A program made the translations under genes and the position numbers. A stretch of DNA of 64,000 nucleotides, taken from positions 22,396 to 86,395 of the forward strand of contig DATDCY010000012.1 of the NCBI GenBank assembly GCA_036524115.1, given 5' to 3'. Every line of letters begins with the position of its first letter. Position 1 is the first letter of the stretch. Source of the DNA: a bacterium (GTDB lineage: Bacteria > JAUVQV01 > DATDCY01). Below are positions 10,989 to 52,934 of the stretch, one piece after another. A model generated the notes under the pieces. That model made no database searches. It was not told where the DNA came from and saw only the letters and a list, made by a program, of their open reading frames with translations.

Positions 10989-12323
10989 CTATTTCTTGTG
11001 CATGCCCGGCGGCGGCTCCGGCGGGGCCGCCAGGGTCGGCGTCACCGTGACTTCGGCGTCGCCGCGCTTGAGCACCACCGTCGCCGTGTCCCCCGCCTTC
11101 TTGCCGTTGATCACGATGATCACGTCGCCCTGCTCGGCGATCGGGAAGCCGTCGATCGAGACGAAGGCGTCCCCGGCCTGGACGCCCGCCGCGGCGGCGG
11201 CCGAGCCCGGGACGACCTTGTCGACGTACACCGTCTTGTCCTCCGCGCGCAGCACGACGCCGAGCCGCACCCGCTTCTTCTCGACGTCCTCGTACGGCAC
11301 CAGCCACGCGAAGTCCCCGGGCAGCAGCGGGATCTCGGGGACGTCGACGTCCATCGTCAGCTCCTCGCGCAGCTCCTCGGGGATCGAGATCTCCTCCGGG
11401 AGGACGATGACCTGCGGCCAGGCGGCGCGGCGCAGCACCCGGCGCGGGATGCCCAGGCCGTAGCGCACGTGGAAGCCGCCGGCGACGACCACCATCTTCT
11501 TCCCCTCGCCGGCCGGGCTCCTGAGGTAGTCGACCACCCGCGAGGCCATCGTCTCGTCCCAGAGGACCTGCGTCCGGAAGAAGCTCTCGAACATCTTCTC
11601 CTTCGCGGCCTCGGAGCGCCGCTCCCGGGCCGTCGCCTCCATCCAGTCCTCATCGGGGTTCGCGGCGCGCGCGGCCGTGCCGTGCCCGGCGTCGTGCCCC
11701 CCGAACACCGCCTCGAGCAGGGCGCGCTGGTAGGGGTCGGAGAAGTCCGTCTCCGGCACCTTGGCGGCCAGCTCCGGCGGCAGCGGGCCGGATCCCGCGG
11801 CGGCGAACTGCTTCTGGGTCTCCTTCGCCGGGTCCAGCGCGATCACGTCCAGCCGGCGGTCGCGCGCGAGCTCGAGGATGCCGCGGTAGTTGCCGAAGTC
11901 GGAGCCCCAGTTGTCGAACCACTGGGACTCCTTGAGGAACTGCGGCTCGGTCAGCTCGCCGCGCACCCAGCGGTCGAGCGCGGGCTGCTGCGGCACGCGG
12001 AACATCTCCATGCCGATCGCGACCTTCCCGGGGTGGCGTCGCTCCAGCTCGGCGATGATGCGCCGCTGCGCCTCGTGCGCCTGGAAGTTGCTGTGCATCT
12101 CGCCGATGTAGACGACCTTGGCGGCGTCGACGATGTCCATCATCTGCTCGAAGCTCATGAGCAGGCCGGTCGGCATGTGGACGATGTCGCCGGCCTGTGG
12201 GGCGCGTGCGAGGGGGTAGGGCGAGAGCCCGCTGCCTGCCTCGGGTACCCGCGCGCCCGCGCAGCCGGCCAGGAGGGCGGCGCCGAACGAGAGCACAAGA
12301 AGGGCCATGGATCGTGACGTCAT
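10989..12323 (-). CDS. ChaN-family (Tiki-like, haem-binding) lipoprotein with C-terminal PDZ domain
   Basis: VVYIGEMHSNFQAHEAQRRIIAELERRHPGKVAIGMEMF...WFDNWGSDFGNYRGIL matches PF04187 by recollection. The C-terminus GDAFVSIDGFPIAEQGDVIIVINGKKAGD is a PDZ domain. Start MTSRSMALLVLSFGAALLAGCAG is a lipoprotein signal at 12323. Confidence 0.6.
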   Translation of the reverse strand: MTSRSMALLVLSFGAALLAGCAGARVPEAGSGLSPYPLARAPQAGDIVHMPTGLLMSFEQMMDIVDAAKVVYIGEMHSNFQAHEAQRRIIAELERRHPGKVAIGMEMFRVPQQPALDRWVRGELTEPQFLKESQWFDNWGSDFGNYRGILELARDRRLDVIALDPAKETQKQFAAAGSGPLPPELAAKVPETDFSDPYQRALLEAVFGGHDAGHGTAARAANPDEDWMEATARERRSEAAKEKMFESFFRTQVLWDETMASRVVDYLRSPAGEGKKMVVVAGGFHVRYGLGIPRRVLRRAAWPQVIVLPEEISIPEELREELTMDVDVPEIPLLPGDFAWLVPYEDVEKKRVRLGVVLRAEDKTVYVDKVVPGSAAAAAGVQAGDAFVSIDGFPIAEQGDVIIVINGKKAGDTATVVLKRGDAEVTVTPTLAAPPEPPPGMHKK

Positions 12324-12415: not shown

Positions 12416-13252
12416 CTAGCCGGAGGAGCGGCCCCCGGGCCGGTGCGCGAGCTTCTCCCGCCTCAGCCAGTCGAGCCACTCGCGCTGCTCGTCCGAGAGC
12501 AGGCCCTTCTGCGCCGCGACGAAGGCCGCCCAGGCCTCCGCGCTCTCGAACCGGACGCCGTAGTACCCGCTCGCGAAGGAGCCGCGGCCGGTGAAGTAGA
12601 TCTCGCCGCCGGGGGAGACGTCGACCATGAGATCGTGGTTCTTGTAGATCACCGACTCGCCGACCTGCGAGACCGTCCCCTCGCGCTGGCGACGCAGCTC
12701 GTCGTACACCAGGTAGGAGGCGCCGAGCAGCAGGAGCAGGGCCGCCGCCGTGCTGAGCTTGGCGACGCTCCGGTACGCCTGGGGGCTGAAGAGGTCCTGG
12801 ATCGAGAAGGCCACGCGCCTGCCGATCGCGCGCTGGATGTCGCCGACGCGGGCGAGGGCCGGGCGGACCGCCCGTCCCGTGTAGTTCTCCACCTCGCGGA
12901 TAGCCAGGTCGTCGAGGGGGTCGGCCATGGCCAGCCGCAGGACGTTGTTCTCCTCGAAGGCGAGGGGGATCACGGCGTAGCGGTGGCAGATGTGCCGCGG
13001 GAGGACGCGCCGGACATCGGCGGCGGTCTCCTCATCCGGCCGTACGACGGGGAGGTCCAGCTGCTGCGAGAGCGCCTTGAGGAGCTGCTCGTCGCTGATG
13101 AGCTTCATGCGCACGAGGAGGTAGCCCAGCCGGCGCAGGCCGCCGGCCTGGACGCGCAGCGCCCGGTCGAGCTGGTCCCTGGCGATCAGCCCCTGTCCCA
13201 CGAGCAGCTCGCCGAGATACGGTCTGCCGCCGCGGTCCCTCGGTGCCGCCAT
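12416..13252 (-). CDS. MshEN (T2SS protein E N-terminal) domain protein with one TM helix; putative c-di-GMP receptor
   Basis: PYLGELLVGQGLIARDQLDRALRVQ...LGYLLVRMKLISDEQLLKALSQQLDLP matches the tandem RLGxxLLxxGLIxxxQLxxAL motifs of the GspE_N/MshEN domain. A TM segment AALLLLLGASYLV follows. Start MAAPRDRGG at 13252. The upper part of track ORF 12416..14287 is read-through over the neighbouring gene. Confidence 0.6.
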   Translation of the reverse strand: MAAPRDRGGRPYLGELLVGQGLIARDQLDRALRVQAGGLRRLGYLLVRMKLISDEQLLKALSQQLDLPVVRPDEETAADVRRVLPRHICHRYAVIPLAFEENNVLRLAMADPLDDLAIREVENYTGRAVRPALARVGDIQRAIGRRVAFSIQDLFSPQAYRSVAKLSTAAALLLLLGASYLVYDELRRQREGTVSQVGESVIYKNHDLMVDVSPGGEIYFTGRGSFASGYYGVRFESAEAWAAFVAAQKGLLSDEQREWLDWLRREKLAHRPGGRSSG

Positions 13253-13320: not shown

Positions 13321-15111
13321 CTAGGGGAGCGCGCGCGCGTCCCAGGCGCGATAGTCGTCGAAGTGCGCGACCGACTTCTCGGCCAGGCAGCCGATGCCGC
13401 CGGCCGTCGCGTCCCCGAAGCGGTAGGTCACGACCGGCCGCGTCTCCCTGCCGAAGAAGACGGCGACCCGGCCGCCCGGGTGGATGTCGGCGCGCAGCTG
13501 GTACCACTGGTCCGCCCGGAGGCGGCGGGCCGCCGACGCCTTGATGCCGGCCTTCTCGCCGGGCGAGTCCCCCGCCTGGCCGATGACGACCCGCGAGTCC
13601 CGGAGAGCGACATAGCGGTAGTGCTGCGCATCCGTCACGGCGAAGAGGATGCCCGTTCTGTTCGCCAGCGAGCGCGCGCTCAGCCTGAGTTTCGTCACGA
13701 TTCTGCCGGCGGCGAACGCCGGCAGCGCGCTGACGACCGCGCGGTTGACGAGCGTCATGCTGCCGGAGGTGAACGTCCGGTCGGCCCCGACCAGCCATTT
13801 CCCCGAGAGCGTCCGCCACTGCGGGTCGCCGGCGGCGGTGCCGTCCGAGAAGGAGTCCGCGAGCAGCAGCGAGGCGCCGCCCGCGATCGAGACCGCGGTC
13901 GGGCCGGAGACCGCCGGGACGCTTGGGTGCAGGGCGCAGCGCGCCTCGGCGCTGACGAAGTAGACGCCCTCCGCGGGCCAGGACTTCCACGCGGCGACGG
14001 CCCCGGAGCCTCCCGGCGTCAGCCACGGCGAGGCCGTGCCGTCGCCCCACTGCAGGCGATACTGGACCGGGTCTCCCGTGCTCGATGCTGCATTCCCGGC
14101 GGTGTACCCGTAGACCACCCCGGTGAGGCCGTCGCCCGGCCCCTGCGGAGGGGCCGGCGGCGAGACCGTCTCGCCGGGCGCAGTGGCCACGGTTACCTCC
14201 AGGGGAGGTGACGGAGACGAGTGGACGCCCGGGTGGAGCACGCAGCGCGCCTCGCTCCTGACGGCATAGGTCCCCGGCAGGAGCCACGACTTGTCCGCGG
14301 AGGAGGCGCCGGCGGCGAGCCAGGGCGAGACCGTCCCGTCGGCCCAGAGGAAGCGGTACTGCACGGGGTGCCCCGCGCTCGAGAGGCTCCCGCCCGTCGC
14401 ATAGCTGTGGGGCTGCGTTCCCGTGACCGTCGTTGGGCCGTCGGGCGCGGCCGGCGCGGCGATCGTTTCCGCCGGCGCCGCCGCGACCGTCACCGCGATG
14501 GGGTCGGAGAGCGCAGACACGACGCTCGTGTGCGCCGCACAGCGGGCCTGCACGCGCACGTCCGTGTACGTCGCTGCGACGTCCCAGCTCTTGGTCGCCT
14601 CGATGACGCCGACCGGCAGCCAGTCGGAGTCCGTGCCGTCCGACCAGAAGAAGCGGTACTGCACCGGGTCGCCGGCGCTGGACGCCGCGCCCCGCGCGGT
14701 GAAGACGTACGGCGTCCCGGCCTGGAGATCGGTCGGGCCGGCAGGCGGGGAAGGCTGGGAGACGGTCTCGGGAGCGGGAATGCAGGGAGGCATGTAGGAG
14801 ACCTCGTTGGAGTACCCGCTCTCGCCTTTCGCGTCGTACGCGGTGACGGCGAAATAGTAGGTCAAGCAGGGGGACAGTCCATCGACCGTCGCCGTGACGA
14901 CGCCGTTCGTGACCACGTTGGCCACGACGGTCGGCGTCGGGTTGTAGGCCCCGCTCGAGAGTCCCCGGTAGAGGTGGTAGCCCGCCACGGTTTCCGTGTT
15001 GGCGTCCCAGGCGAGGGTGACGTTAGCGCCCCTGGCGAGGCCGGGGAACACGGCGAGCAAGACGACCGCGGCGACAAGCGTCCACCGCCATCCCGGCGAT
15101 GGCCCCGACAT
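13321..15111 (-). CDS. Secreted protein: signal peptide, FN3 domain, three roughly 95-aa repeats, shared C-terminal roughly 175-aa domain (LamG-like?)
   Basis: Signal MSGPSPGWRWTLVAAVVLLAVFPGLARG. FN3-like ANVTLAWDANTETVAGYHLYRG...YYFAVTAYDAKGESGYSNEV. Three repeats of PVQYRF.W.DGT.S.WL......KSW...G.Y.V...ARC..H. The C-terminus carries DSFSDGTAAGDP.W...HYRY...IGQAG...AGIK...WYQLRADI, shared with genes 15336 and 18277. An alternative start MRRM lies at 15147. Confidence 0.7.
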   Translation of the reverse strand: MSGPSPGWRWTLVAAVVLLAVFPGLARGANVTLAWDANTETVAGYHLYRGLSSGAYNPTPTVVANVVTNGVVTATVDGLSPCLTYYFAVTAYDAKGESGYSNEVSYMPPCIPAPETVSQPSPPAGPTDLQAGTPYVFTARGAASSAGDPVQYRFFWSDGTDSDWLPVGVIEATKSWDVAATYTDVRVQARCAAHTSVVSALSDPIAVTVAAAPAETIAAPAAPDGPTTVTGTQPHSYATGGSLSSAGHPVQYRFLWADGTVSPWLAAGASSADKSWLLPGTYAVRSEARCVLHPGVHSSPSPPLEVTVATAPGETVSPPAPPQGPGDGLTGVVYGYTAGNAASSTGDPVQYRLQWGDGTASPWLTPGGSGAVAAWKSWPAEGVYFVSAEARCALHPSVPAVSGPTAVSIAGGASLLLADSFSDGTAAGDPQWRTLSGKWLVGADRTFTSGSMTLVNRAVVSALPAFAAGRIVTKLRLSARSLANRTGILFAVTDAQHYRYVALRDSRVVIGQAGDSPGEKAGIKASAARRLRADQWYQLRADIHPGGRVAVFFGRETRPVVTYRFGDATAGGIGCLAEKSVAHFDDYRAWDARALP

Positions 15112-15335
15112 CCCGTGGCGTGTTGCCTCGCTGTGCATGCGGCGCACTATCTCTTGCGGCGCGGTCCCCTCTTATTATCGTTCCCGCCGCTCGCGGCGGC
15201 ATCGGGTTTCCACACCAGTCCCGCAGATCCTGAACATTTCGCCGACAACGGCACGATTTGTCAAGAGTTTCCGGCCAAGTGGCTCGGCGCAAGGGGCGCC
15301 GGGGGGCCGGTGTCGGACCCCCGGTTTCGCCTGCG

Positions 15336-16649
15336 CTACCGCAGGACTGCGTCGGTGAAGACGGCCGTGTTGTCGAAGAGGCTCCTCGCGCCCTCCGTGC
15401 GATAGCCGACGCGGCCCGAGGAGTTGACCACGAAGGTGTACGAGAGCACGGGCGCCGCGCTGCCGTTGAGGTAGACGCGCACCTTCGTGCCGCCCTCGAT
15501 GTCGACGCGCACCCGGTAGCCGGTGCCGGGACTGAGCCGGCGCCGCAGGGACGCCTTCAAACCGGCGCGCTCGACGGGAGTGGCGCCGACCTGTCCGATC
15601 GAGAGTCCGGTGGCGGTCAGCCGGAGGTAGCGGTAGTGCGTCGCATCCTGGTAGTGGAAGACGATCCGCGCATCCGGCGCGGCGGTGTAGGTGCGGGTCA
15701 GGCTGACCCAGCTCTCGATCCGCCCCGAACGCACGTCGCGAACGTTCGGGTCGGCGATCAGCGCCATGCTGACCGGCACGTTCGCCGAGGCGAAGCGCTT
15801 CGCCGTCCCGGTGACGGCCCACGCGCCCAGAACCCTCCGCCAGGACGGATCGCCCTTGGCCGTCCCGTCGCTGAAGTCGTCGACGAAGAGCCTGGGGTTG
15901 TCGGCGACGTTCGGGTCGGTCTCGCCGGCATCGACGCGTCCGTTGGCGTTGAGGTCCTCGCGGCCGTCGGCCAGGCCGTCGCCGTCCGTGTCGGCGGCGA
16001 GCGGGTCGGTGGCGGTGGCCGGATCGAGGTCGGGGCGGAAGACCGCCAGGTCGGTGTCCGGGCCCGCCATCGCCAGCGCGTACGCGAGCTCGGTGCCATC
16101 CTGGAGGCCGTCACCGTCGGTGTCGGCGACGCACGGATTGCTCTCGCCGGCGCCGGCCTGGCCGTCGTGGTCGGCATCCTCCAATCCGTCGGGGATGCCG
16201 TCGTCGTCGGTGTCCGCGTCGGTCGGGCTGGTGCAGCCGGCCGTCTCGAGCGTGTCGGCCAGGCCGTCGCCGTCCGAGTCGCCGCCCGCGTCCGCCTTGG
16301 GGTTGTAGACCACCTCGGCCGAGAGCGGGCTCTCCTGCCCGAGGAGGTCGTAGGCGGTGACAGCGGCGTGGTAGGCGACGGAGGCATCGAGGCCCGTCAG
16401 CGTGTAGGAGGAGACGTTGCCGACGTCGATGACCGACGAGAACGGCTGGCCCGAGAGCCCGTTGTGGACCATGTAGCCGACAGTGGTCTCCGCGGGATCG
16501 GGGTCCCACGAGATGGTGATCTGTCCGGCGAACGCCAGCGAGGGGGCGAGAAGAACCAGCGCCGCGCACAGCAGCCGGGTCACGCCGCCGTGCGGAAAGG
16601 CCCGCGTCTTCAGGGACCCGTTACCGTCGCCGAGACCGTGCCGTGCCAT
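15336..16649 (-). CDS. Secreted protein: FN3 domain, thrombospondin type-3-like Ca-binding Asp repeats, shared C-terminal domain
   Basis: Signal MARHGL...RLLCAALVLLAPSLAFA. FN3 (QITISWDPDPAETTVGYMVHNG...YHAAVTAYDLLGQESP). DxDxDGxxDxxE repeats (DSDGDGLADTLE, DTDDDGIPDGLEDADHDG, DTDGDGLQDGTE, DTDGDGLADGRED). C-terminus DDFSDGTAKGDPSW...HYRYLRL...IGQVG...AGLK...YRVRVDI. Confidence 0.7.
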   Translation of the reverse strand: MARHGLGDGNGSLKTRAFPHGGVTRLLCAALVLLAPSLAFAGQITISWDPDPAETTVGYMVHNGLSGQPFSSVIDVGNVSSYTLTGLDASVAYHAAVTAYDLLGQESPLSAEVVYNPKADAGGDSDGDGLADTLETAGCTSPTDADTDDDGIPDGLEDADHDGQAGAGESNPCVADTDGDGLQDGTELAYALAMAGPDTDLAVFRPDLDPATATDPLAADTDGDGLADGREDLNANGRVDAGETDPNVADNPRLFVDDFSDGTAKGDPSWRRVLGAWAVTGTAKRFASANVPVSMALIADPNVRDVRSGRIESWVSLTRTYTAAPDARIVFHYQDATHYRYLRLTATGLSIGQVGATPVERAGLKASLRRRLSPGTGYRVRVDIEGGTKVRVYLNGSAAPVLSYTFVVNSSGRVGYRTEGARSLFDNTAVFTDAVLR

Positions 16650-16988
16650 GAGAGCGCTCCTCCGCTGCTCCGGGCAATCCGCACCGGCGGAGGGGCGCAC
16701 CGCGGAGAGAGCACCCCGCGATGGCATCCCTTCGACTGGCAGCCCTGCCGCCGTATTCCCGCGCCGCGGGAAGCAGGCCGTCGGCTTTGCGTCCCACCCT
16801 TTCGGATGGTTTGCCCTGAGCAGTCCCGTTGTTGCCGTTCATCGTCTTCACCCGCGGAAAATCTAGAAGAGGGGGCGCGAAAAATAAGTGACGGGCGTCA
16901 CGCCGCACCGGGAATGTGACGGATGACCGAAAAAGCGATCGCCCCCACCTTCCCGCGGGGGACGATGGGGGCGATCGGACGAATGCGG

Positions 16989-18134
16989 CTAGTTGCTGCG
17001 GACGTTCTTCGGCGCGCCAGGCGGCGCCACGCCGATGCCTTGGACCGCGAAGTCGTAGGGGTTCTTGCCGGCGTCGTTGTTCGCGATGCTGAGCGTGGCC
17101 GTGCGCGTGCCGGCGACGCTCGGGTCGAAGCTCACGGTAAAGGTGGTGCTGGCCCCGGCCGCGATCGTTGCGGAGGGCTGCACGGTCACGGTGAAGTCGG
17201 CGGCGTTCGCGCCGGAAACGGCGACCAGCGGCGCGCCGGAGAGTGTCAGAGCGGCGGTGCCGGTATTTCGGATCGTGAAGGTGTGCGTCATGACGCCGCC
17301 CGTCAGCTTCGTCTTGCCGAAATCGGTGTCGTCGGTGCTGGAAGGCGCGACATCGCCGTCGGGAATCGCCGTGCCCTTGCCGAGCACGCTCATCGCGGGA
17401 GCGGTCGCGCCGGCGCCCTGGATCGCGAAGTCGTAGGGGTTCTTCGCCGCGACGTTGGTGGCGATCGAGATCGTCGCCGAGCGGGTGCCGGCGGCCCCGG
17501 CAACGAAGCTCACGGTGAAGGTGGTGCTGGCGCCCGCGGCGACCGGGGTCGTCGGCTGCGCCGTCACCGTGAAGTCCGCGGCGTTGGCGCCGCCGATGGC
17601 GACGAGCGGCGTCCCCGAGAGCGTCAGCGGGCCGGTGCCGACGTTCCGGATGGTGTAGGTGCGCGTCACCGCGGCGCCGCCGACGCCGGCCGTGCCGAAG
17701 TCGGTCTGGTCGGCCGCGGAGGGCGTGGTGTCGCCGTCGACGATCACGACCGCGTTGCCCAGGACGTTGACGTCCGGGACCCCGGGCACCGTGTACGGCA
17801 CCTCGTTGGAATAGCCGCTCTCGTTGCCGACGCTGTCGTAGGCGGTCGCGGCGAAGTAGTACGTCGTGCCGTCGGTCAGGCCGGTCACGGTGTAGGTCGT
17901 CACGTTGCCGGCGTCGATCGGCGTGCCGTAGACGCCGGATGCCGTCCCGTAATAGACCTTGTACCCTGTGACGTCAGGCTCGGTGTTCGCGTCCCACGCG
18001 AGCGTCACCTGGGCGGCGAGCGCCTGGCCCGCGCCGAGGATCAGGACCAATGCCAGGGCGATCCCGCCGCAGAGACGCGCCCGCCAGCGCGCGCCGTTGT
18101 TGTTTCTCCCGATCTCCCTGCTGACCGCTGCCAT
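16989..18134 (-). CDS. Secreted protein: FN3 domain plus two tandem roughly 115-aa ASH/'choice-of-anchor D'-like beta-sandwich domains
   Basis: Signal MAAVSREIG...LALVLILGAGQALA. FN3 (AQVTLAWDANTEPDVTGYKVYYG...YYFAATAYDSVGNESGYSNEV). Two copies of DG...DFG...TFTIRN.GT..LTLSG.PLV...G.NAADFTV...P...I.AGASTTFTVSF.....GTR.AT.SIA.N...KNPYDF..QG. It lacks the C-terminal domain shared by its three neighbours. Confidence 0.7.
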   Translation of the reverse strand: MAAVSREIGRNNNGARWRARLCGGIALALVLILGAGQALAAQVTLAWDANTEPDVTGYKVYYGTASGVYGTPIDAGNVTTYTVTGLTDGTTYYFAATAYDSVGNESGYSNEVPYTVPGVPDVNVLGNAVVIVDGDTTPSAADQTDFGTAGVGGAAVTRTYTIRNVGTGPLTLSGTPLVAIGGANAADFTVTAQPTTPVAAGASTTFTVSFVAGAAGTRSATISIATNVAAKNPYDFAIQGAGATAPAMSVLGKGTAIPDGDVAPSSTDDTDFGKTKLTGGVMTHTFTIRNTGTAALTLSGAPLVAVSGANAADFTVTVQPSATIAAGASTTFTVSFDPSVAGTRTATLSIANNDAGKNPYDFAVQGIGVAPPGAPKNVRSN

Positions 18135-18276
18135 CGCCGTCCCCTCCGTCGCGTGTCGCCCGGCGAGCCGTTCGCCGCCCGGTGCGGTGCCGTTCGCCGG
18201 AGAGAGAATGCACCCAAGCGGCAGCGGGGCGCTGTGATTGCGGTCACAGGGCGCGGAGGCGCAGGAGGGGACCCCT

Positions 18277-21261
18277 CTAGGGGAAGACGGTCGCCTCCTC
18301 GCAGTAGAAGTTGTCGAAGAAGGTCTCCACCTGGGAGGCGCCGAGCCCGAGCCAGCCGGCGACCGCCCTCTTGAACTTGAAGGCGCCCTTCAGCCTGCCG
18401 TCGAGGTAGACCCGCACGTACCCGGCGGAGTCCAGGTCGGCGCGCAGCCGGTACCACCTGCCGACGACCGTCGGCACGAAAATCGTCTTCTTGATCCCGC
18501 CGGCTTCCGTCCCGAGATACCCGGCCTGCCCGACGACGATCCTGCCGGGCAGCAGCTTCACGTACCGGTAGCGCTGGTGGTCACTCTGGTACGCGAAGAG
18601 GAGGCTGGCGTTGGCCGCGGAGCCCCCGCCCGAGAGCTTCGTCTTTATCTCGAACTTGCCCGTCAGGAACGCGCTGAAGTTGTTGTTGACGACGCGGTTG
18701 TCCACGTTCGCCGTGGACGCCAGCTGCTTGGCGCTGTTCACGCGCCAGCTCGCGTACCGGTAAGGGAGCCAGTCCGGGTCGCCGGCGTCGCTGCCGTCGG
18801 TGAAGTCGTCGCGGTGGATGATCGGCGCGGCGATGAACGAGAACCAGGTGAACGGGCCCGGGACCGGTCCGCCCGGCGTCAACGCGACCACCCGCCAGTA
18901 GTACGTGTTGCCGGCGACCTTCTCCGGGAAGATGCGCGAGTTCGTCGCGATCGTGTCCAGCAGCGTCAGCGGCGCCAGCGGGTCCGTGCCGTAGTAAAGC
19001 TCGTAGCCGGTCGCGCCGGCGACGGCGTCCCACATGAACTTTGTCTCCGAGGTCACCACGGACGAGCCCTGCGGCGGGAATGCGTTGTAGATGCCCGGGG
19101 CAGGGGAGGCGGCGGACGTCGAGAAGACCACCGAGTAATAGCCGGTCGAATCCAGGTTGTTGTCGCTCACGACGAGTGTGTAGAGCCCCCGCTGCAGGAG
19201 CGTGTGACTCAGCTTCTGCGGCATCAGCGACCCGGTGGCGGACGCCTCGATTGCCCCGCCGCCGGGGGGGTAGAGGTAGATCTCCGGCTGCACGCTCGAG
19301 TAGGCATAGGCCGCAGCCGTGAGGGTGATCCGGTCGCCGGGGCGGCCGTAGAAGTGGTAGACATCCTGGTCCGCGCCATAGTGGAACGCGCCGACCTTCA
19401 CTTCCTTGTGCGCGATCATGCCGCCGTCGTTGTCATCCGCGTTGTCCGACGGGGAGATGCCCCCGGGGATCTGAACCAGCGAGAAGGCGTACGTGCCCGA
19501 AGCGTTCAGGCCGGCGTCGCTGATCACCACCGAGTAGACGCCGGTCTCCTGCAGCTGCCAATTCTCGCGCGTCGCCCTCGTCACCGGCAGAGAGGACTGC
19601 TCGAGGTTGCCTCCGGGCGCGTACAGGCGTATCTGCGGCTCGAGACCGGAGGAAGGCGACGAGGCGGCCACGGCGACCGTGGTCCCTGCCGTGCCGTAGA
19701 AGAGATAGACGTCGGTGTCCGCCTGATAGCTGAGCACTCCGGCCTTGGTTCCGCCGGACATGATCGTGCCGCCGTCCGCATCGCCCGCCGAGGTGACGGC
19801 CCCCGGTATCGTCACGAGCGCGATCGCGTACCACCCTTCGGCGTCGAGGTTGAAGTCGCTCACAACGGCCGTGTAGGTTCCGCTCTGCGCGGGCAACCGC
19901 TGCTCCAGCCACTGCGAGTCCTTGCTGCCGATTGCCTGCGCGACAAAGGACCCGTCGGGCGCATAGAATCGAATCTCGGGCTGCACGCCGCCGGTGTTCT
20001 CGGCCGTCGTCAGGATCACCATCTCACCGCCCTGGGCGTCGAACTGGAAGATGTCGGTGTCGGAGCGGTTCGAAAGGTACCCGAGCTTCGTCTCGCCCGA
20101 GGCGATGATCCCGCCGTCGGCGTCGTCCGCCGAAGCGGCCGCGCCCGGGATCTTCGCCAGGGACAGCGAGTACCACCCCTCGGCGTTCAAGCCGTAGTCG
20201 CTCACGAGGATCGTGTAGGTCCCGCTCGCTGCGGCGACCGCGTCAAGCAGATGACCGGACGTGCTGCCGAGACTCGAGGCCTCGAGTGCGCCCCCCGCCG
20301 GCGGGTACAGGTAGAACTCCGGCTGGACACCGCTCCCCGAGAGTGGCGCTGTCGTGATGACGATCCGGTCGCCGGCGGTCGCCGCGAACTGAAAGAGGTC
20401 GCTGTCCACCGCGGGCGAGAGGTAGCCGAGCTTCGTCTCGCCCGAAGCGATCGGGCCGCCATCGCCGTCCGTCGCCGACGCGGCGTCGCCGGGGATCTTG
20501 GCGAACGAAAGCGTATAGCTGCCGTAATTGTTCATGCCATAGTCGCTGACGAGCAGCGTGTACTTCGTGCCGCCGGCGGCTGGCCCGAGGCGGTAATCCA
20601 CGCGGCGGGTGCTGAGGTTCCCGGTTCCGGGAAAGTCCGCCGCGGGGCCACCGCCGCCGGGGGGGAACAGGTACAGCTCCGGCTGCGGACCGGAGCCGGA
20701 AACGGTGACGACGATGCGATCATCGGGCGATCCGTCGAACTGGAAGCAGTCCATGTCGGCGTTCCCCGTGATCGACCCGCCGACACTCTGGCCCGAGGAG
20801 ACGGGACCGCCGTCGGGATCCACGGCCGAGGCGAGCAGACCGGGGTCGATGGCGGCCGCGCTCACGTTCGTGAAGGCGATCGAGTAATACCCGTCGTTGT
20901 TGGCGCCGTTGTCGCGCACGGTGATTGTGTACTCGCCGTCCGCCGGGAGCTGGTGCGTCAAGCGGAACATGCTGAACGAGCCCGTCGCGGACGCGATGGC
21001 CGGCGCCGGGCCCGGCCCTGCGAGGACGATCTCCGGCTGCACGCCGCCGCTGCCGTCCTGGGCCGTGGCGACCACGACCCGGTCCCCGGCGGAGCCGGTG
21101 AACGTCCAGGTCTCCTCCCGGTTGTTCCCTCCGGTGCCGCCCAGGAGAAGGCCGGAGCGGGTCTCGCCCGAGGCGATGCCCGCCGCCTCGGCGCTGGCGG
21201 GGCCCAAGGTGCCCAGGACGGCGATGACGGCGATCAGCCGGAACGGGACGCGGTGCAGCAT
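18277..21261 (-). CDS. Large secreted repeat protein: at least 7 PPC-like (pre-peptidase C-terminal-type) roughly 95-aa repeats, one FN3, shared C-terminal domain
   Basis: Start MLHRVPFRLIAVIAVLGTLGPASAEA at 21261, with GGGAGG about 13 nt upstream. Repeats read ...DGG.I.SGETK.G.LS...D.D.FQF.A.AGD.IVI.TA...SGVQPE..LY.P.GG.LE.S.LG... in the D.D.Y.F style of the PPC domain. A late FN3 (PPQGSSVVTSETKFMWDAVAGATGYELYYG...YYWRVVAL) is present. C-terminus DDFTDGSDAGDPDW...HQRYRYVKL...VGQAG...GGIK...WYRLRADL...YVRVYLDG. The 82 N-terminal residues of the track ORF are rejected. Confidence 0.7.
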   Translation of the reverse strand: MLHRVPFRLIAVIAVLGTLGPASAEAAGIASGETRSGLLLGGTGGNNREETWTFTGSAGDRVVVATAQDGSGGVQPEIVLAGPGPAPAIASATGSFSMFRLTHQLPADGEYTITVRDNGANNDGYYSIAFTNVSAAAIDPGLLASAVDPDGGPVSSGQSVGGSITGNADMDCFQFDGSPDDRIVVTVSGSGPQPELYLFPPGGGGPAADFPGTGNLSTRRVDYRLGPAAGGTKYTLLVSDYGMNNYGSYTLSFAKIPGDAASATDGDGGPIASGETKLGYLSPAVDSDLFQFAATAGDRIVITTAPLSGSGVQPEFYLYPPAGGALEASSLGSTSGHLLDAVAAASGTYTILVSDYGLNAEGWYSLSLAKIPGAAASADDADGGIIASGETKLGYLSNRSDTDIFQFDAQGGEMVILTTAENTGGVQPEIRFYAPDGSFVAQAIGSKDSQWLEQRLPAQSGTYTAVVSDFNLDAEGWYAIALVTIPGAVTSAGDADGGTIMSGGTKAGVLSYQADTDVYLFYGTAGTTVAVAASSPSSGLEPQIRLYAPGGNLEQSSLPVTRATRENWQLQETGVYSVVISDAGLNASGTYAFSLVQIPGGISPSDNADDNDGGMIAHKEVKVGAFHYGADQDVYHFYGRPGDRITLTAAAYAYSSVQPEIYLYPPGGGAIEASATGSLMPQKLSHTLLQRGLYTLVVSDNNLDSTGYYSVVFSTSAASPAPGIYNAFPPQGSSVVTSETKFMWDAVAGATGYELYYGTDPLAPLTLLDTIATNSRIFPEKVAGNTYYWRVVALTPGGPVPGPFTWFSFIAAPIIHRDDFTDGSDAGDPDWLPYRYASWRVNSAKQLASTANVDNRVVNNNFSAFLTGKFEIKTKLSGGGSAANASLLFAYQSDHQRYRYVKLLPGRIVVGQAGYLGTEAGGIKKTIFVPTVVGRWYRLRADLDSAGYVRVYLDGRLKGAFKFKRAVAGWLGLGASQVETFFDNFYCEEATVFP

Positions 21262-21527
21262 GACAGACAGTTCCTCCCTGGCGTTGGGACGCTCTAGGCC
21301 GAAACGACGCAAAGATCCCTCGATTCTCGCGTTTCCTATTAACGCAATAATCATGTGGCCGGCCTCGCATGTCAAGGGGACGCTCTTGATCGATGCCCGG
21401 ACTTCACCGGGGCGAACCCGCATTTGCCGCGCTGGAGCGTCGCGCTTCATGATAAGAGAGTGAACAAAGTTGATATCAGGGGACCGATTTGGTAAGAATG
21501 TCCGCAAATCAATTCAGAGGAGCAATC

Positions 21528-23810
21528 ATGCACGGTCAGGTGCGGAAGGTTTCGCTGTGTCTCCTCGTCGCGATGGCATTCTCTCTCCTTCCGGGGTGCA
21601 GTTCAGAGCAGAAGAAGGCGAAGCATCTCAAGCGGGGCGAGGCCTACCTGGCGGAGTCGAAGGTGCGCGAGGCGATCATCGAGTTCCGGAACATGCTGCA
21701 GATCGACTCCCGGGACGCACTCGCGTACTACAAGCTCGGCCTGGCGTATCTCATGACCGGACAGGTCAAGGAGGCGTACGCCGATCTCTCGCGGAGCGTG
21801 GAATTGAACGCGGAGAACGTCGACGCGCAGCTCAAGCTCGCGGGCATTCTGCTCTCCGCCGGAGAGACCGGAAAGGCCAGAGAGAAGGTGACGCTCGTGC
21901 TGGCGAAGGAGCCGGGCAACGTCGAAGGGCACCTGCTGATGAGCGGGGTCGACGCCGCCTCAAAGGACATCGACGGCGCGATCGCCGAGGCGAAGAAGGC
22001 AGTCGAGCTCGACCCCAAGCGGATGCAGTCCTCCATACGGCTGGCCGAGCTGTATGCGGCCGCGCGCCAGACGGCCAAGGCCGAGGAGACGCTGAAGGCC
22101 GCGCTCGGCGTCGACGCGAACTCGCCGGAGGCGCACGCCGCTTACGGCGAGTTTCTGCGGGTCACGGGTCGCGTGGACGAAGCCGAGACGCAGTTCAAAC
22201 GCGTGGTGGAACTTCAGCCCCAGAAGGCCGAGTCGCACGTCCTGCTCGCACGTTTCTACATCGCGACGCGGCGGCCCGAGCCGGCGGGAAAGGCGCTGGC
22301 CGCGGCCATCGCGGCCGAGCCGAAGAACCCGATGCCCTACTTCACCCTCGCCGACTTCCAGCGCGCGCAGGGAAGCAGCGCCGAAGCCGAGGCGACGCTG
22401 CGCAAGGTCCTGGAATTCGACGCGGGGAACGCCCGCGCTCTCGGGACGATCGGGGAGGCCGCCCTGCTGCGCGGGAGGCCCGACGAGGCCGCCGCCACGG
22501 TCGAGGAGCTGCTCAAGCGCAACCCGAGCGACCCCCAGGGGCTGCTGCTCAAGGGCAGGATCGCCATGGGACGCGGCCAGTACCGGGAGGCCTTGGACAC
22601 GTTCCAGGCTGCCACCAAGGCCGCGCCGAACTTTGCGCCCGGGTGGTACTCGCTGGCGCTGGCCCACTTCGCGAACAAGGATGCGGAGCAGGGGAGGGCA
22701 GCGCTGCAGGAGGCGCTCAAGGTCGCGCCCGACTACCGCGAGGCGCGGTTGACTCTCGCGGATCTCGCGCTCAAGTCGAAGAACTTCGACGCGGCGCTCG
22801 AGGAAAGCAGCAGAGTCCTCGAGAAGGACCCCGACAACTACCAGGCGCGGTTGATCGCGGGCAGCGCCGCCTATTGGAAGAAGGACCTGGTCACGGCCGA
22901 GCGGCACTTTCAGGAGCTGTTGCGGATCGACCCGAAGAACCCGAACGGATTCCAGCTGATGGGCAGGCTGGCCGTCGCGAAGGGAAGGCTCGACGAGGCC
23001 GCTGCGCAGATGGAGAAGGCGCTCGCGCTCTCACCCGACTTCCTCCCGGCGCTCCAGGACCTCGCGATGCTGGCGATGATGCAGAAGCAGCCCGAGAAGG
23101 CGCTCGCCCGCGTGCAAAAGCAGGTCGAGGCGTCGCCGAGGAACCCGGCGTACCACCAGCTTCTCTTCCAGCTCTACGAGCGCGCCGGCAAGCTCGATCT
23201 CGCCGAGGCCAGCCTGAGGAAGGCCATGGACCTGGCGCCGGGGAACAACGGTCTCTACGTCGCCCTCGGCTCCTTCTACGGGCGGCACGGCATGATCGAC
23301 AAGGCGTTGCGGGAGGGGCAGACGGCCGTGGAGAAGCAGCCGGACTCGCTGCAGGCGCGTATGCTGCTTGGCGTCCTGTATGACTCGCGCGGGGAGACGG
23401 CCAAGGCCAAGGAGCAGTACGAGGCGGTCCTGCGGATCGACCCGAAGTTCGGTCCGGCGGCGAACAATCTCGCCTGGATCGAGGCCGAGCACGGCGGCAG
23501 CCTGGATCGGGCCATGCAGCTTGCGCAGATCGCGCAGGACAAGCTGCCGCAGGACCCGAACGTCGCCGACACCCTCGGCTGGGTCTTCTACAAGATGAAC
23601 ATGTTCTCGCGCGCCGTGACCTCCCTGGAGGAGGCCCGCGAGAAGATCGGCGACAACCCGGTCGTCCGCTATCACCTCGGCATGGCCTACTTCAAGAGCG
23701 GCAAGAACGCGCAGGCCGCCGCGGAGTTGAAGAAGGCGCTGGAGCTGAGTTCGGCCTTCGGCGGCGCGGACGAGGCGCGAAAGACACTGGGGGAGATCGG
23801 GAGCAAGTAG
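21528..23810 (+). CDS. prsT: PEP-CTERM system TPR-repeat lipoprotein (PrsT-like)
   Basis: Lipoprotein signal MHGQVRKVSLCLLVAMAFSLLPGCSS, with GAGGAG 7 nt upstream of ATG 21528. About 760 aa of back-to-back TPR repeats (AYYKLGLAYLMTGQVKEA...), the architecture of the TIGR02917 family. It is located immediately upstream of the PrsR-like gene. Confidence 0.7.
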   Translation: MHGQVRKVSLCLLVAMAFSLLPGCSSEQKKAKHLKRGEAYLAESKVREAIIEFRNMLQIDSRDALAYYKLGLAYLMTGQVKEAYADLSRSVELNAENVDAQLKLAGILLSAGETGKAREKVTLVLAKEPGNVEGHLLMSGVDAASKDIDGAIAEAKKAVELDPKRMQSSIRLAELYAAARQTAKAEETLKAALGVDANSPEAHAAYGEFLRVTGRVDEAETQFKRVVELQPQKAESHVLLARFYIATRRPEPAGKALAAAIAAEPKNPMPYFTLADFQRAQGSSAEAEATLRKVLEFDAGNARALGTIGEAALLRGRPDEAAATVEELLKRNPSDPQGLLLKGRIAMGRGQYREALDTFQAATKAAPNFAPGWYSLALAHFANKDAEQGRAALQEALKVAPDYREARLTLADLALKSKNFDAALEESSRVLEKDPDNYQARLIAGSAAYWKKDLVTAERHFQELLRIDPKNPNGFQLMGRLAVAKGRLDEAAAQMEKALALSPDFLPALQDLAMLAMMQKQPEKALARVQKQVEASPRNPAYHQLLFQLYERAGKLDLAEASLRKAMDLAPGNNGLYVALGSFYGRHGMIDKALREGQTAVEKQPDSLQARMLLGVLYDSRGETAKAKEQYEAVLRIDPKFGPAANNLAWIEAEHGGSLDRAMQLAQIAQDKLPQDPNVADTLGWVFYKMNMFSRAVTSLEEAREKIGDNPVVRYHLGMAYFKSGKNAQAAAELKKALELSSAFGGADEARKTLGEIGSK

Positions 23811-23861: not shown

Positions 23862-25253
<1,392 letters not shown>

Positions 25254-25395: not shown

Positions 25396-25411
25396 TGGCA
25401 CAACTCATGCA
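25396..25411 (+). promoter_or_regulatory. Sigma-54 (RpoN) -24/-12 promoter
   Basis: TGGCACaactcaTGCA compared with consensus TGGCACG-N4-TTGCA. The GG and GC dinucleotides are exactly 10 bp apart and the -24 hexamer is perfect. It lies 80 nt upstream of ATG 25491 and just downstream of the sigma-54 activator gene. Confidence 0.55.
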
Positions 25412-25490
25412 AACATGATTCAGGCAGAGAGCGATGATGACGAAAATGGGACGGTTGGTCTTCGGCGAGCACAGCGAAAGGAGATTGGTT

Positions 25491-25979
25491 ATGAAGAAGA
25501 AATGGATGGTGTTGGTGGTGGCCGCCCTGGTCCTGACGCTAGTACCGGTGGGACGCGCGCTGGCGACTACGATAACGCTGGACCTCCACAATAACGATGC
25601 TCCGATCTGCGCTCCCGGGACGGAGGGGTGCCCGAATGACGGCACCTATTGGCATTTCGTGATCGCTCCGGACAATGATTGGGCGACCTTCGTCCAGGTG
25701 CATCTCAATCTTGGCACCTCGTTCTACGACACATCGCTGTGGATTCAGCCACAGGTCGATCAGGTGTATGTGGCGGTGCCGACGGGGTTCCACTACGACG
25801 ACCTTCTTGTGAGTGGCAGCACCGCGACCGTTACCTATGCCGGGGATCTTCCTAAGAATGCCAAGTTCGTCCTGAGTCATGTCTGCGTGGCGAGTCAGGT
25901 TCCCGAGCCTTCTTCGCTGTTGCTTCTCGGCAGCGGAATCCTCGGCCTGGGCCTGATCCGCCGCCGGCGCCGCGCCTAG
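25491..25979 (+). CDS. PEP-CTERM sorting-domain protein (putative exosortase substrate), 163 aa
   Basis: Signal peptide MKKKWMVLVVAALVLTLVPVGRALA, with AGGAGA 8 nt upstream of ATG 25491. The C-terminus ...SQVPEPSSLLLLGSGILGLGLIRRRRRA has the PEP motif, a hydrophobic helix and an Arg-rich tail, which is the canonical PEP-CTERM tripartite signal. Confidence 0.8.
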   Translation: MKKKWMVLVVAALVLTLVPVGRALATTITLDLHNNDAPICAPGTEGCPNDGTYWHFVIAPDNDWATFVQVHLNLGTSFYDTSLWIQPQVDQVYVAVPTGFHYDDLLVSGSTATVTYAGDLPKNAKFVLSHVCVASQVPEPSSLLLLGSGILGLGLIRRRRRA

Positions 25980-31522: not shown

Positions 31523-31771
31523 ATGCCCGTCAAGGAGGCGCTTCGCACGTTCATCCTCGAGAACTTTCTGTTCGGCCAGGAGAATCCGGACTTCACGGAC
31601 GGCGCGTCGCTGCTCGAGAACGGCCTGATCGACTCGACGGGCGTACTGGAGCTCGTGGCCTTCGTCGAGGAGAAGTACGGCATCTCGGTGGCCGACGAGG
31701 AGCTGCTCCCCGAGAACTTCGACTCCGTCGACAACCTCGCCAACTACGTCGGCAGGAAGAGTGCGGCCTGA
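31523..31771 (+). CDS. Acyl carrier protein
   Basis: 82 aa. GLIDSTGVLELVAFVEEKYGI has a DS(T/L) phosphopantetheine-attachment Ser. AGGAGA RBS. Confidence 0.7.
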   Translation: MPVKEALRTFILENFLFGQENPDFTDGASLLENGLIDSTGVLELVAFVEEKYGISVADEELLPENFDSVDNLANYVGRKSAA

Positions 31772-31802
31772 CCGGACCGGGGCGGGCCAGGGAGCAGTCG
31801 GC

Positions 31803-33380
31803 GTGAGACAGACCCTCGTCAACCATTTCCTCGAGCACAGCGCCGGGAAGTTCCCGGAGAAGGTCGCGCTGCTCTGTCATGGGCAGCGGCTCACGTACGC
31901 GGAGCTGAACGGCAGGGCGGATGCCCTTGCCGCGGCGCTGGCGGGGGCCGGCGTCGTCCGCGGCGACAGGGTCGCGGTGTTCATGGACAACTCCGTCGAG
32001 GCCGTGGTGTCCATCTTCGCCACGATGAAAGCCGGGGCGGCCTTCATGGTCGTCAACCCCACGACGAAGGCCGAGAAGCTCGAGTACATCCTGAACAACA
32101 GCCGGGCGCGTGTCCTCGTCACGCAGACGCCGCGGCGGGCCGTCGCCAGCCGCGTTTCCAGCCCGCACCTCGAGACGGTCATCCTCGCGGGGAAGGCCGG
32201 CGCGGACGTGGCCGCCTTTGCCGGGGCGAGACTCCTTTCCTTCGAGGATGCAGTGGCCGCAGCTCCGGCGGGTGGCCTCGTGTCGCCCTGCATCGATCTC
32301 GACCTCGCCGGCGTCATCTACACCTCGGGTTCGACGGGGAACCCGAAGGGGGTGATGCTCTCGCACCTGAACATGGTCTCGGCGGCGGATTCCATCACGA
32401 CCTATCTCGAGAACACACCCGACGACGTCATCGTCAACGTGCTGCCGCTGGCCTTCGACTACGGCCTCTACCAGGTGCTCATGGCCTTCAAGATCGGCGG
32501 CACGGTCGTGCTGGAGAGGTCCTTCACGTACCCGTACGAGATCATCGAGCTCATGATCCGGGAGAAGGTCACGGGCTTCCCGGGAGTTCCCACCATCTTT
32601 GCCATCCTTCTCGGACTGAAGGACCTGCCGAAGTGGGACCTCAGCTCTCTGCGCTACATGACCAACACCGCGGCCGCGCTGCCCGCGAGTCACATCAGGC
32701 GGCTGCGGGAACTGTTCCCGGCCGTGCGGCTCTACTCGATGTACGGTCTCACCGAGTGCAAGCGGGTGTCGTATCTGCCGCCCGCGGAGCTGGACCGCCG
32801 GCCGCACTCCGTTGGCCGGGGAATGCCGAACGAGGAGGTGTACATCGTCGACGAGCAGGGAAACCGCGTCGGGCCCGGCGTGGTCGGCGAACTGGTCGTC
32901 AGGGGCGCCAACGTCATGCTCGGCTACTGGGAGCTGCCCGAGGAGACGGCGGCCTGCATCCGGCCGGGCAAGTACCCCGGGGAGCGCGTCCTGTACACCG
33001 GCGATCTCTTCAAGACCGACGAGGAGGGTTTCCTCTACTTCGTCGCGCGGAAGGACGACATCATCAAGAGCCGCGGCGAGAAGGTGAGCCCCAAGGAGGT
33101 CGAGAACGCGCTGTACGGGCTCGATGGGGTCCTCGAGGCGGCCGTCATCGGTGTCCCGGACGACATCCTCGGCGAGGCGGTCAAGGCGTTCGTCGTCCCC
33201 GAGGCCGGTGCCGCGCTGACCGAGAGGGACGTCCTCAAGCACTGCGCCGCGCATCTCGAGAACTTCATGGTTCCAAAGGCGGTCGAGATCATGAAGTCGC
33301 TGCCGAAGACCTCGACCGGCAAGATCAGCAAGAAGGAACTCAAATCAGGAGACTTCGCCCGCCATGAAAATCTGCACTAA
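31803..33380 (+). CDS. Acyl-CoA ligase / acyl-ACP synthetase (AMP-forming), exosortase-A-associated type
   Basis: IYTSGSTGNPKGV (AMP-binding P-loop), YGLTE, YTGDL...DDIIKSRGEKVSP...KTSTGKISKKEL. GTG 31803 has AGGGAG 8 nt upstream. The track start GTG 31761 lies inside the ACP gene. Confidence 0.8.
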   Translation: MRQTLVNHFLEHSAGKFPEKVALLCHGQRLTYAELNGRADALAAALAGAGVVRGDRVAVFMDNSVEAVVSIFATMKAGAAFMVVNPTTKAEKLEYILNNSRARVLVTQTPRRAVASRVSSPHLETVILAGKAGADVAAFAGARLLSFEDAVAAAPAGGLVSPCIDLDLAGVIYTSGSTGNPKGVMLSHLNMVSAADSITTYLENTPDDVIVNVLPLAFDYGLYQVLMAFKIGGTVVLERSFTYPYEIIELMIREKVTGFPGVPTIFAILLGLKDLPKWDLSSLRYMTNTAAALPASHIRRLRELFPAVRLYSMYGLTECKRVSYLPPAELDRRPHSVGRGMPNEEVYIVDEQGNRVGPGVVGELVVRGANVMLGYWELPEETAACIRPGKYPGERVLYTGDLFKTDEEGFLYFVARKDDIIKSRGEKVSPKEVENALYGLDGVLEAAVIGVPDDILGEAVKAFVVPEAGAALTERDVLKHCAAHLENFMVPKAVEIMKSLPKTSTGKISKKELKSGDFARHENLH

Positions 33381-37406: not shown

Positions 37407-37428
37407 ACGGCCGGGCCGCTGTGAAGAG

Positions 37429-44281: not shown

Positions 44282-44479
44282 TCGTCGAGGCCTTGGCGCG
44301 TCACATGGATGCCCGCAAGGAACTCCGCCTTGCCCGCCTAATTGCTCTTGGCCTTAAAGTCCTCACGCACGTCTGTGTCGAAGGCCCTCCTGTGTGTCAT
44401 CCTGTCGCAGGATGCTTCAATGTTCTGCCAAGTGTGCCCGCGAAAGAGTCGAGATGCATCGTGACGGACGTCTAAGCCG

Positions 44480-45676: not shown

Positions 45677-45853
45677 CGAAGGACCAGCGTCATGTGTCCG
45701 AGTCGGGTACGAGGCGCGAATCGGCGACGCGTACGCATCTGCATGATGAGTCCAATCCCGATGCGCGTCGTTCTTGGGTCGGCGCGTTCTTGGTGTCGAC
45801 TAAGGGAGCGGCACGGTGTGAAGCGCGCGGGCACGGCGTTAGGAGGCTGGTGA

Positions 45854-46441: not shown

Positions 46442-46447
46442 AGTCCT

Positions 46448-47584: not shown

Positions 47585-47599
47585 GCAGAAGGTATTCTC

Positions 47600-49084: not shown

Positions 49085-49140
49085 TGTAGTGTTCCACAAC
49101 ACTGGCAGGAAGCAAGGATATAGGAAGAGCGGAGCGCTTC

Positions 49141-50247: not shown

Positions 50248-50434
50248 TCCATTGTCATCGGCAGGTTCGTCATATCGCTCACGTGTGCCTGGTGGCGAGG
50301 CCGAACCCGAGTCGGCGGAAGCGACTCGCCTCGCGCCAATAGGAGCGATGCCTTGGAGCGACTTGACGACTGCGATAGCCCGACCCCGGTGTGGTCTTGT
50401 CGGCCCGTCGCGGGGCCAATCTTGAGATAGATCC

Positions 50435-51679: not shown

Positions 51680-51802
51680 GCCTCGTTCAATCGCCACCAC
51701 GCATGCCTGACTGGTTCATCGTCCCTCACCGATGGACAAAGTGCTGGACTACGGTGTGCACCGGTTTCTGGGTACATCCGACTATGGCACCGGTGTGTTG
51801 AT

Positions 51803-52894: not shown

Positions 52895-52934
52895 TCAGGA
52901 TGGGGGTGTTTGCCGGACGGCGGGAGACGCTTCG

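Follow-up and report, generated by a model that had tools for sequence, protein, structure and literature searches.

A concanavalin-A-like C-terminal domain beyond current models in secreted modular proteins at an XrtA/PEP-CTERM exopolysaccharide locus: a candidate glycan anchor

In the biofilms and flocs of uncultured environmental bacteria, the matrix consists of exopolysaccharides (EPS) and of proteins mostly annotated as hypothetical. Some bacteria produce matrix proteins, lectins or adhesins, with affinity for their own EPS: Bap1 and RbmC of Vibrio cholerae act with the Vibrio polysaccharide (VPS), and CdrA or LecB of Pseudomonas act with Psl. Here we analyze four adjacent genes, A to D, in a 64-kb stretch of contig DATDCY010000012.1 (the window). 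They lie next to an EPS locus, and three of them, A, B and D, end in a homologous C-terminal domain (CTD). By analogy with these systems, a lectin module on a secreted protein, whose gene is close to an EPS locus or shares regulation with it and with cyclic di-GMP (c-di-GMP) signalling, would keep the protein in the matrix or cross-link the matrix. The folds and families differ from those of Bap1/RbmC, CdrA and LecB. The CTD defines a real and sizeable family not covered by current models; its role is plausible, and its fold and general class of function are already familiar. We propose that it is a glycan-binding anchor holding A, B and D in the matrix, most plausibly via the EPS of the same locus, and assign to this reading a probability of about one half.

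The four genes were found on the minus strand at the positions given in a preliminary description of the window (Table 1), and its observation that three of them end in one homologous block was borne out. In pairwise BLASTP comparisons, the CTDs of A and B are 38% identical (E 4.5e-31), those of A and D 34% (E 6.9e-26), and those of B and D 30% (E 2.6e-18). The three-way alignment has 36 invariant columns, and the motifs reported initially are present, namely DDF[ST]DG..GDP.W, HYRY, IGQ.G, GIK, WY.LR.D, and V.VY. A hidden Markov model (HMM) of the family finds exactly three copies in the window. At the DNA level, only motif-sized similarity is left between them; given this and the protein identity of 30–38%, the three CTDs are old paralogues, and for the same reasons a recent local duplication as their origin was rejected. 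Moreover, the CTD recurs in other loci (L003, L004, L007, L012, L013, and L014 among those looked up) and in hundreds of protein clusters.

To collect the family, 1.84 billion cluster representatives (clusters at 50% identity) were searched exhaustively with HMMER; 835 proteins passed E ≤ 1e-3, of which 232 had E ≤ 1e-10 and 59 had E ≤ 1e-30. A word-indexed homologue search with the three-copy profile gave two matches only. When genomes were searched with a pattern from the CTD alignment, none of the 250 pattern matches was confirmed, and metagenomes gave one 1.1-kb contig. All family members sampled are metagenomic entries named "hypothetical protein", which is also the public annotation of the window proteins (NCBI HEY5997775.1, identical to B, and HEY5997777).

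The isolated CTDs of A, B, and D have no match in Pfam even at E ≤ 10, and full-length A–D have no NCBIfam match over the CTD at E ≤ 0.1. In particular, the window copies do not reach the gathering thresholds of PF06439 (DUF1080/3keto-disac_hyd) and PF13385 (Laminin_G_3), and neither model matches them or their close relatives at E ≤ 10. The three-copy profile produced nothing meaningful against PDB sequences, and no match to the carbohydrate-binding module (CBM) family CBM66. The block had been described as unrecognized and as not recognizable as a named sorting or anchor signal. The latter agrees with the Pfam and NCBIfam results; the former holds for these libraries, but a broad profile reveals a remote relative in CBM66/PF06439 (E 1e-9).

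An AlphaFold model of the CTD from five sequences was mediocre (pLDDT 72.6), while the one from a 47-sequence alignment was very confident (pLDDT 97.2, pTM 0.92). In the latter model, the CTD is a concanavalin-A-like two-sheet β-sandwich, and thus belongs to this superfamily at the level of the fold, in line with the LamG- or concanavalin-type jelly roll suspected at the outset. Apart from CBM66, structural matches include the lectin domain of galactocerebrosidase (score 20.6), DUF1080 structures (15–18), and baseplate or receptor-binding lectin domains of mycobacteriophages (17–18). Further matches are YesU (17.2) and the C-terminal domain of thrombospondin-2 (16.4), followed by ERGIC-53, legume lectins, GH16, and PL7.

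The 47-sequence profile matches the founding CBM66, that of the Bacillus subtilis levanase SacC (BsCBM66; PDB 4AZZ, 4B1L, 4B1M), with E ~1e-9 over profile positions 21–179. The significance of this match depends on the breadth of the profile, as it comes from the inclusion of divergent members: E was 35, 8.5, 0.27, 0.089, and 0.0096 for the closest 20, 40, 60, 80, and 100 members, respectively, and 1.8e-7 for all 116, the alignment register being identical throughout. Similarly, hhalign against the single BsCBM66 sequence gave probabilities of 6, 41, and 74% for the closest 20, 40, and 60 members. Among the 47 aligned sequences, divergent members match PF06439 (4/47) or Laminin_G_3 (6/47), and PF06439 is also the Pfam family of a close BsCBM66 homologue; a homologue search with BsCBM66 returned five near-identical fragments only. 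Direct membership of the core subfamily in CBM66 was considered and found unsupported, given the E-values of 35 and 8.5 and the hhalign probabilities of 6 and 41% for the closest members. The homology between the CTD and CBM66 is therefore remote and transitive, short of family membership. As the window copies fail the respective models, membership of the CTD in CBM66, PF06439, or Laminin_G_3 is not demonstrable; the CTD is a distinct, unmodelled clade of concanavalin-A-like lectins/glucanases whose nearest characterized relative is CBM66/DUF1080.

The CTD differs from BsCBM66 in sequence (13% identity) and from known CBM66 modules in several other respects. Canonical CBM66 modules are found on GH32, GH43, and polysaccharide lyase (PL) enzymes (PMC11002231), whereas the CTD is carried by adhesin-like arrays of Ig, PKD, cadherin, and FN3 domains. 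CBM66 modules are appended to carbohydrate-active catalytic domains, while Pfam and NCBIfam scans of A, B, and D found no catalytic domain. Further, the CTD has a near-obligatory position at the extreme C-terminus, and one of its subfamilies is paired with an MshEN-domain membrane protein at XrtA/PEP-CTERM loci. Binding to a bacterial EPS, in the form of lyase-treated xanthan, has a precedent in one CBM66 member (PMC11002231).

With DUF1080 3-keto-disaccharide hydrolases, GH16, and PL7 among the structural relatives, one may ask whether the CTD itself is a small polysaccharide-active catalytic domain (hydrolase, lyase, or transglycosylase). We consider this very improbable. The near-invariant positions are mostly aromatic residues or glycines (F11, W22, G27, W29, F80, G161, G164), with R89 and D175 in addition, and neither a conserved acidic pair nor a Lys/His/Tyr lyase set was identified among them. 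The window copies score nothing against PF06439, and ~185 residues are at the small end for such enzymes.

The family has a strong C-terminal bias. The CTD ends at most 15 residues from the C-terminus in 136 of the 153 proteins examined; 24 of the proteins examined carry two to seven copies. The last residue is proline in 63 of 132 family proteins, often within a conserved [VAL]-L-P-COOH tail, and 38 of the 132 end in VLP, ALP, LLP, FLP, ILP, or VFP; two such C-termini are encoded at 13324..13332 (A) and 18280..18288 (D). These features, as well as the high diversity of the passengers and the presence of choice-of-anchor D domains, which are typically paired with alternative C-terminal anchors, upstream of the CTD in one relative (P0007, see below), would be expected of a secretion or sorting domain. 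Such a domain would follow the logic of type IX secretion system (T9SS) CTDs or of PEP-CTERM, being recognized by a machine dedicated to export or attachment and possibly removed or covalently processed. However, the C-terminal position is also compatible with an appended CBM, and the CTD is an autonomous lectin-fold domain of 185 residues homologous to a CBM, with three to seven tandem or internal copies in some relatives. The C-terminal tripeptides of the window copies are ALP, VLR, and VFP, and the copies have neither a transmembrane (TM) segment nor a charged tail. Among NCBIfam sorting models (PEP-CTERM TIGR02595, MYXO-CTERM, T9SS Por_Secre_tail, LPXTG), none matches the C-termini of A–D, while the same library picks up PEP-CTERM in the neighboring gene at 25434. 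Finally, no dedicated secretion system recurs beside the family members in the loci looked up. On balance, a sorting function is improbable.

The N-termini of A–D, judged by eye from the sequence, resemble Sec signal peptides, with a basic stretch, a hydrophobic stretch, and a site of small residues. All four proteins had been described as starting with a signal peptide followed by FN3. This is the case for A, B, and C; in D, the PPC-like repeats start directly after the signal peptide. The middle part of A consists of three PKD-like repeats, as counted before, with a DNA period of ~300 nt. The Asp-rich, thrombospondin-3 (TSP3)-like repeats of B and the two choice-of-anchor D-like domains of C were likewise recovered (Table 1); C also matches the Pfam HYDIN_VesB_CFA65-like_Ig domain (70.7 bits), and the CTD family HMM has no match in it. 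The architecture of D required revision: we counted six PPC-like repeats (DNA period ~345 nt) instead of at least seven, and in place of a second FN3 there is a single weak FN3-like segment, D having no Pfam fn3 match at E ≤ 0.1. There is a sigma-70-like site ahead of D and, after C, a hairpin resembling a terminator.

Table 1. Positions of genes, domains, and related features. Unless a locus (L) is named, positions are those of the window; aa, amino acids; ORF, open reading frame.
Feature	Residues (aa)	Position	Strand	Evidence
Gene A		13321..15111	minus	ORF of 596 aa
A, FN3	28-110	14782..15030	minus	Pfam fn3 30.7 bits
A, three PKD-like repeats of ~100 aa	113-412	13876..14775	minus	PKD_4 31.8 bits
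A, CTD (CBM66-like)	413-596	13324..13875	minus	CTD family HMM 204 bits
Gene B		15336..16649	minus	ORF of 437 aa
B, FN3	41-119	16293..16529	minus	subfamily FN3 HMM 104 bits; Pfam fn3 23.5 bits (cutoff 25)
B, Asp-rich TSP3-type Ca-binding repeats	120-251	15897..16292	minus	TSP3_bac 24 bits (cutoff 25); CglD segment E 3e-24
B, CTD (CBM66-like)	252-437	15339..15896	minus	CTD family HMM 200 bits
Gene C		16989..18134	minus	ORF of 381 aa
C, FN3	40-118	17781..18017	minus	Pfam fn3 37.9 bits
C, two choice-of-anchor D / HYDIN-type Ig domains	119-372	17019..17780	minus	NF012200 168.1 bits (cutoff 45), two stretches
Gene D		18277..21261	minus	ORF of 994 aa
D, six PPC-like repeats	27-718	19108..21183	minus	Pfam PPC 58.4 bits; jackhmmer iE 1e-39 to 1e-52 each
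D, single weak FN3-like segment	737-797	18871..19053	minus	iE 8e-4, FN3 HMM from A/B/C and homologues
D, CTD (CBM66-like)	812-994	18280..18828	minus	CTD family HMM 176 bits
MshEN partner, directly downstream of A	278 in total	12416..13252	minus	NF053729 52.1 bits (cutoff 38)
Putative lipoprotein with C-terminal PDZ domain		10989..12323	minus	LAGC lipobox from sequence; PDZ-region matches
PrsT, divergent from D		21489..23810	plus	TIGR02917 387.5 bits (cutoff 312)
PrsR, divergent from D		23862..25253	plus	TIGR02915 617 bits (cutoff 503)
PepA-like PEP-CTERM protein gene		25434..25979		PEP-CTERM domain 27.3 bits (cutoff 16)
Acyl-CoA ligase, first paralogue		31761..33380	plus	TIGR03098 512 bits (below cutoff 592)
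Acyl-CoA ligase, second paralogue		37366..39054	plus	TIGR03098 631 bits (above cutoff 592)
P0007		L003 508-3111		FN3, 2x choice-of-anchor D, 3x PKD-like, CTD
MshEN gene of L003		L003 3181-3879		60% identity to window
MshEN gene of L004		L004 11856-12698		62% identity to window
MshEN gene of L013		L013 1922-2764		71% identity to window
P0059 (D-like) with the FTP-domain protein that follows		L011 10001-15426		38% identity to D over ~1000 aa
FN3 protein after MshEN, Desulfobulbales		L023 10955-13657
FN3 protein after MshEN, Desulfobulbales		L025 10609-11943		LAWD subtype, 57 bits
FN3 protein after MshEN, Desulfobulbales		L026 10972-13656
FN3 protein after MshEN, Desulfobulbales		L030 3778-4998		LAWD subtype, 57 bits

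To see which modules accompany the CTD, we compared family representatives. An N-terminal hydrophobic leader is present in 106 of 150. Among the 150 best representatives, ~19 follow the FN3-first plan of the window, including three FN3-TSP3-CTD proteins similar to B, several proteins with FN3, PKD-like repeats, and CTD similar to A, and minimal FN3-CTD proteins; two have the plan of D (PPC repeats, FN3-like segment, CTD), and 129 carry other passenger modules. In the Pfam census of 73 full-length members, the most common partners are PKD_4 (11), He_PIG (11), Big_9 (10), fn3 (10), Cadherin_4 (8), Cadherin_5 (7), and Beta_helix (5), with FG-GAP, CARDB, and DUF11 among the others; no glycoside hydrolase (GH) or PL catalytic domain is present among the 25 families listed of 49. 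As the PKD, He_PIG, Big_9, fn3, cadherin-like, FG-GAP, CARDB, and DUF11 partners form adhesin or surface arrays, the census supports a non-enzymatic adhesin role. P0007 joins the modules of C and A in one protein, and a separate C-like gene precedes it; such a "Rosetta-stone" fusion suggests that C and A may act together.

One D-like relative, P0059, consists of PPC repeats and a CTD and is followed by a 799-aa protein with an FTP (fungalysin/thermolysin propeptide) domain, in a context without EPS genes. PPC domains are typical of secreted proteases, and D-type proteins may be protease-associated.

The order of modules in B resembles the C-terminal cassette of thrombospondins, in which type 3 Ca-binding repeats are followed by an L-lectin-like domain. 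Still, B has no Pfam TSP_C match and its TSP3_bac score is 24 against the cutoff of 25; bacterial TSP3 repeats are common and have many partner domains, so that the likeness is probably due to convergent shuffling. Domains of the LamG, pentraxin, or thrombospondin-C type bring up the option that the CTD is a module of protein–protein interaction or self-assembly, serving in oligomerization or in docking to a matrix or surface protein. This is possible, if rather unlikely: the closest structural relatives and the only significant sequence relatives (CBM66, the galactocerebrosidase lectin domain, DUF1080, GH16, PL7) are carbohydrate-binding or carbohydrate-active, and no conserved protein partner with extracellular domains is encoded beside distant family members.

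We then considered the genomic context, using 12 exact homologue look-ups and one MshEN-based genome scan. By equivalog scores, the locus adjacent to the cluster in the window is an XrtA/PEP-CTERM EPS locus; an EPS locus had been noted there before. It encodes PrsT and PrsR, which regulate this EPS system, a PEP-CTERM protein, and XrtA-associated biosynthesis proteins scoring above the cutoffs, among them a FemAB-type protein (397.6 bits, cutoff 260), as well as two paralogous acyl-CoA ligases of the exosortase-A-associated type (Table 1), an amidotransferase, a hydrolase, and a decarboxylase. The exosortase (XrtA) gene was not located among the ORFs scanned. Genes A–D lie between PrsT/PrsR and the gene of the MshEN-domain protein, and the order of an A-type gene followed by the MshEN gene is kept in four lineages, that is, the window with L001, L003, L004–L006, and L013. 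In L003, the C-like gene precedes the pair; in L004–L006, the A-like protein is 46% identical to A; in L013, the order is B-like, A-like, MshEN, PDZ protein (78%), and TolB-like protein (87%). In L004, the genes next to the pair encode the chain-length determinant of the XrtA system (TIGR03007, 336 bits, cutoff 279) and the EPS export protein of the XrtA/PEP-CTERM type (TIGR03027, 226 bits, cutoff 180). Hence, the pair borders XrtA/PEP-CTERM genes in both lineages with enough flanking sequence.

A check proposed earlier, for co-occurrence of the CTD with XrtA/PEP-CTERM loci, has a split outcome: it is seen for the FN3-led A/B subfamily but does not extend to the entire domain family. The neighbors of distant CTD proteins include an SpvB/TcdB/RHS giant protein, an FTP-propeptide protease, and signalling, ABC-transporter, or restriction genes. 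As distant members are away from EPS genes, the EPS linkage belongs to the FN3-led subfamily and not to the CTD as such.

Regulatory sites were also inspected. A sigma-54 (-24/-12) type site, TGGCACAACTCATGCA, is at 25396..25411 on the plus strand, with one mismatch, 23 bp upstream of the PEP-CTERM gene. It is the only good sigma-54 match in the window, where the total number of matches, 11, is below the chance expectation of 21, and its placement is consistent with regulation by PrsR, the sigma-54 activator encoded nearby.

We infer the following scheme. A, B, and D would be exported by the Sec pathway and, without being enzymes, would serve as modular proteins at the cell surface or in the extracellular matrix. 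The ligand of their CTD would be a polysaccharide, most plausibly that of the adjacent XrtA/PEP-CTERM EPS locus or else another envelope glycan; by binding it, the CTD would retain the variable FN3, PKD-like, Ca-binding TSP3, and PPC passengers in the matrix with no covalent link. Several CTD proteins together might cross-link the matrix. C would be a partner devoid of the anchor and, by comparison with P0007, may act with A. The MshEN/TM protein, whose gene lies directly downstream of A, is the probable link between the system and c-di-GMP.

Several observations weigh against a glycan anchor directed to the EPS of its own locus. The motifs DDFSDG..GDP.W, HYRY, IGQ.G, and GIK of the CTD are absent from BsCBM66, and the strong preference for the extreme C-terminus, as well as the conserved [VAL]-L-P end, is not explained by a plain CBM role. 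A comparable similarity to the CBM66 fold was reported for a β-sandwich that does not by itself bind glycan (PMC6560043). The contexts of distant CTD proteins are devoid of EPS genes, and no sigma-54 promoter of the PrsR-controlled type was found upstream of A–D. The last two points, together with MshEN homologues in Desulfobulbales that have no CTD gene within 10 kb, agree also with a different explanation, in which the CTD binds an environmental glycan or that of a prey or host, and the proteins are generic secreted repeat proteins that lie beside the EPS locus only by coincidence. In contrast, incidental association would not predict an A-type gene paired with an MshEN gene in four lineages and next to XrtA/PEP-CTERM genes wherever the flanks suffice, and we consider this explanation unlikely.

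The CTD opens access to several hundred otherwise hypothetical proteins and predicts their tethering to glycans, and it is a candidate non-covalent anchoring route alongside the PEP-CTERM/exosortase systems. A domain of ~185 residues with a very confident model is a testable recombinant module. In practice, the gain is a new model of the Pfam or dbCAN type and improved annotation; conceptually it is modest, unless coupling to c-di-GMP or a new glycan specificity is demonstrated. A much bolder generalization, by analogy and with little likelihood in our estimate, would make the CTD a widespread "matrix-anchor lectin" family (835 clusters, nearly all of them from uncultured bacteria) that ties very diverse adhesin arrays to self-EPS and thereby parallels PEP-CTERM/exosortase sorting in a non-covalent way. 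Cytoplasmic c-di-GMP would then set, via the MshEN/TM protein, whether proteins of the FN3-led subfamily are retained or released, by an inside-out logic like that of LapD/LapG/LapA.

The MshEN partner has an N-terminal MshEN domain, one predicted TM helix (approximately residues 163–183), and a C-terminal extracytoplasmic segment of ~90 residues. Both 24-residue RLG..LL..G.I....L..AL..Q motifs are present (residues 10–35 and 40–65), and PF05157 is a precomputed assignment of the identical protein in L001. A gene of the c-di-GMP receptor type had been noted next to the cluster, and the NF053729 score agrees with that, the binding itself being predicted. With 278–280 residues and 60–71% identity among the lineages with the pair, the protein is better conserved than the secreted proteins preceding it. 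Homologues with 40–46% identity were found in 17 Desulfobulbales genomes (L015–L031), including the cultured Desulfobulbus elongatus DSM 2908 and Desulfogranum marinum DSM 2058, at 4–9 kb from PrsR-like regulators. Given this location and the lack of CTD genes nearby, the MshEN/TM protein appears to be a common part of PEP-CTERM-type EPS loci, to which the CTD proteins are a lineage-specific addition. In four Desulfobulbales loci, an FN3 protein with no CTD directly follows MshEN, the FN3 being of the same LAWD subtype in two of them (Table 1); the association of MshEN with FN3 proteins may be older than that with the CTD. No equivalog model covers the MshEN partner, which, as far as its domains indicate, may be an uncharacterized c-di-GMP receptor of PEP-CTERM-type EPS loci; the analysis thus connects XrtA-type EPS loci with an uncharacterized membrane protein that cultivable strains of Desulfobulbus and Desulfogranum possess.

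A putative lipoprotein with a PDZ domain, an uncertain member of the system, is encoded two genes from A. It is syntenic in L013, the closest relative, and not found at this position in L004. As PDZ domains bind C-terminal tails, a connection to the conserved C-terminal tripeptide of the CTD could be imagined, which is pure speculation.

Within the EPS locus, the GC content falls from 0.64–0.75 to 0.51–0.59 at approximately 44000..59500, across ~15 kb of plus-strand genes, and a glycosyltransferase-type gene (41724) is just upstream of this region. The low-GC region is probably a horizontally acquired polysaccharide-biosynthesis island.

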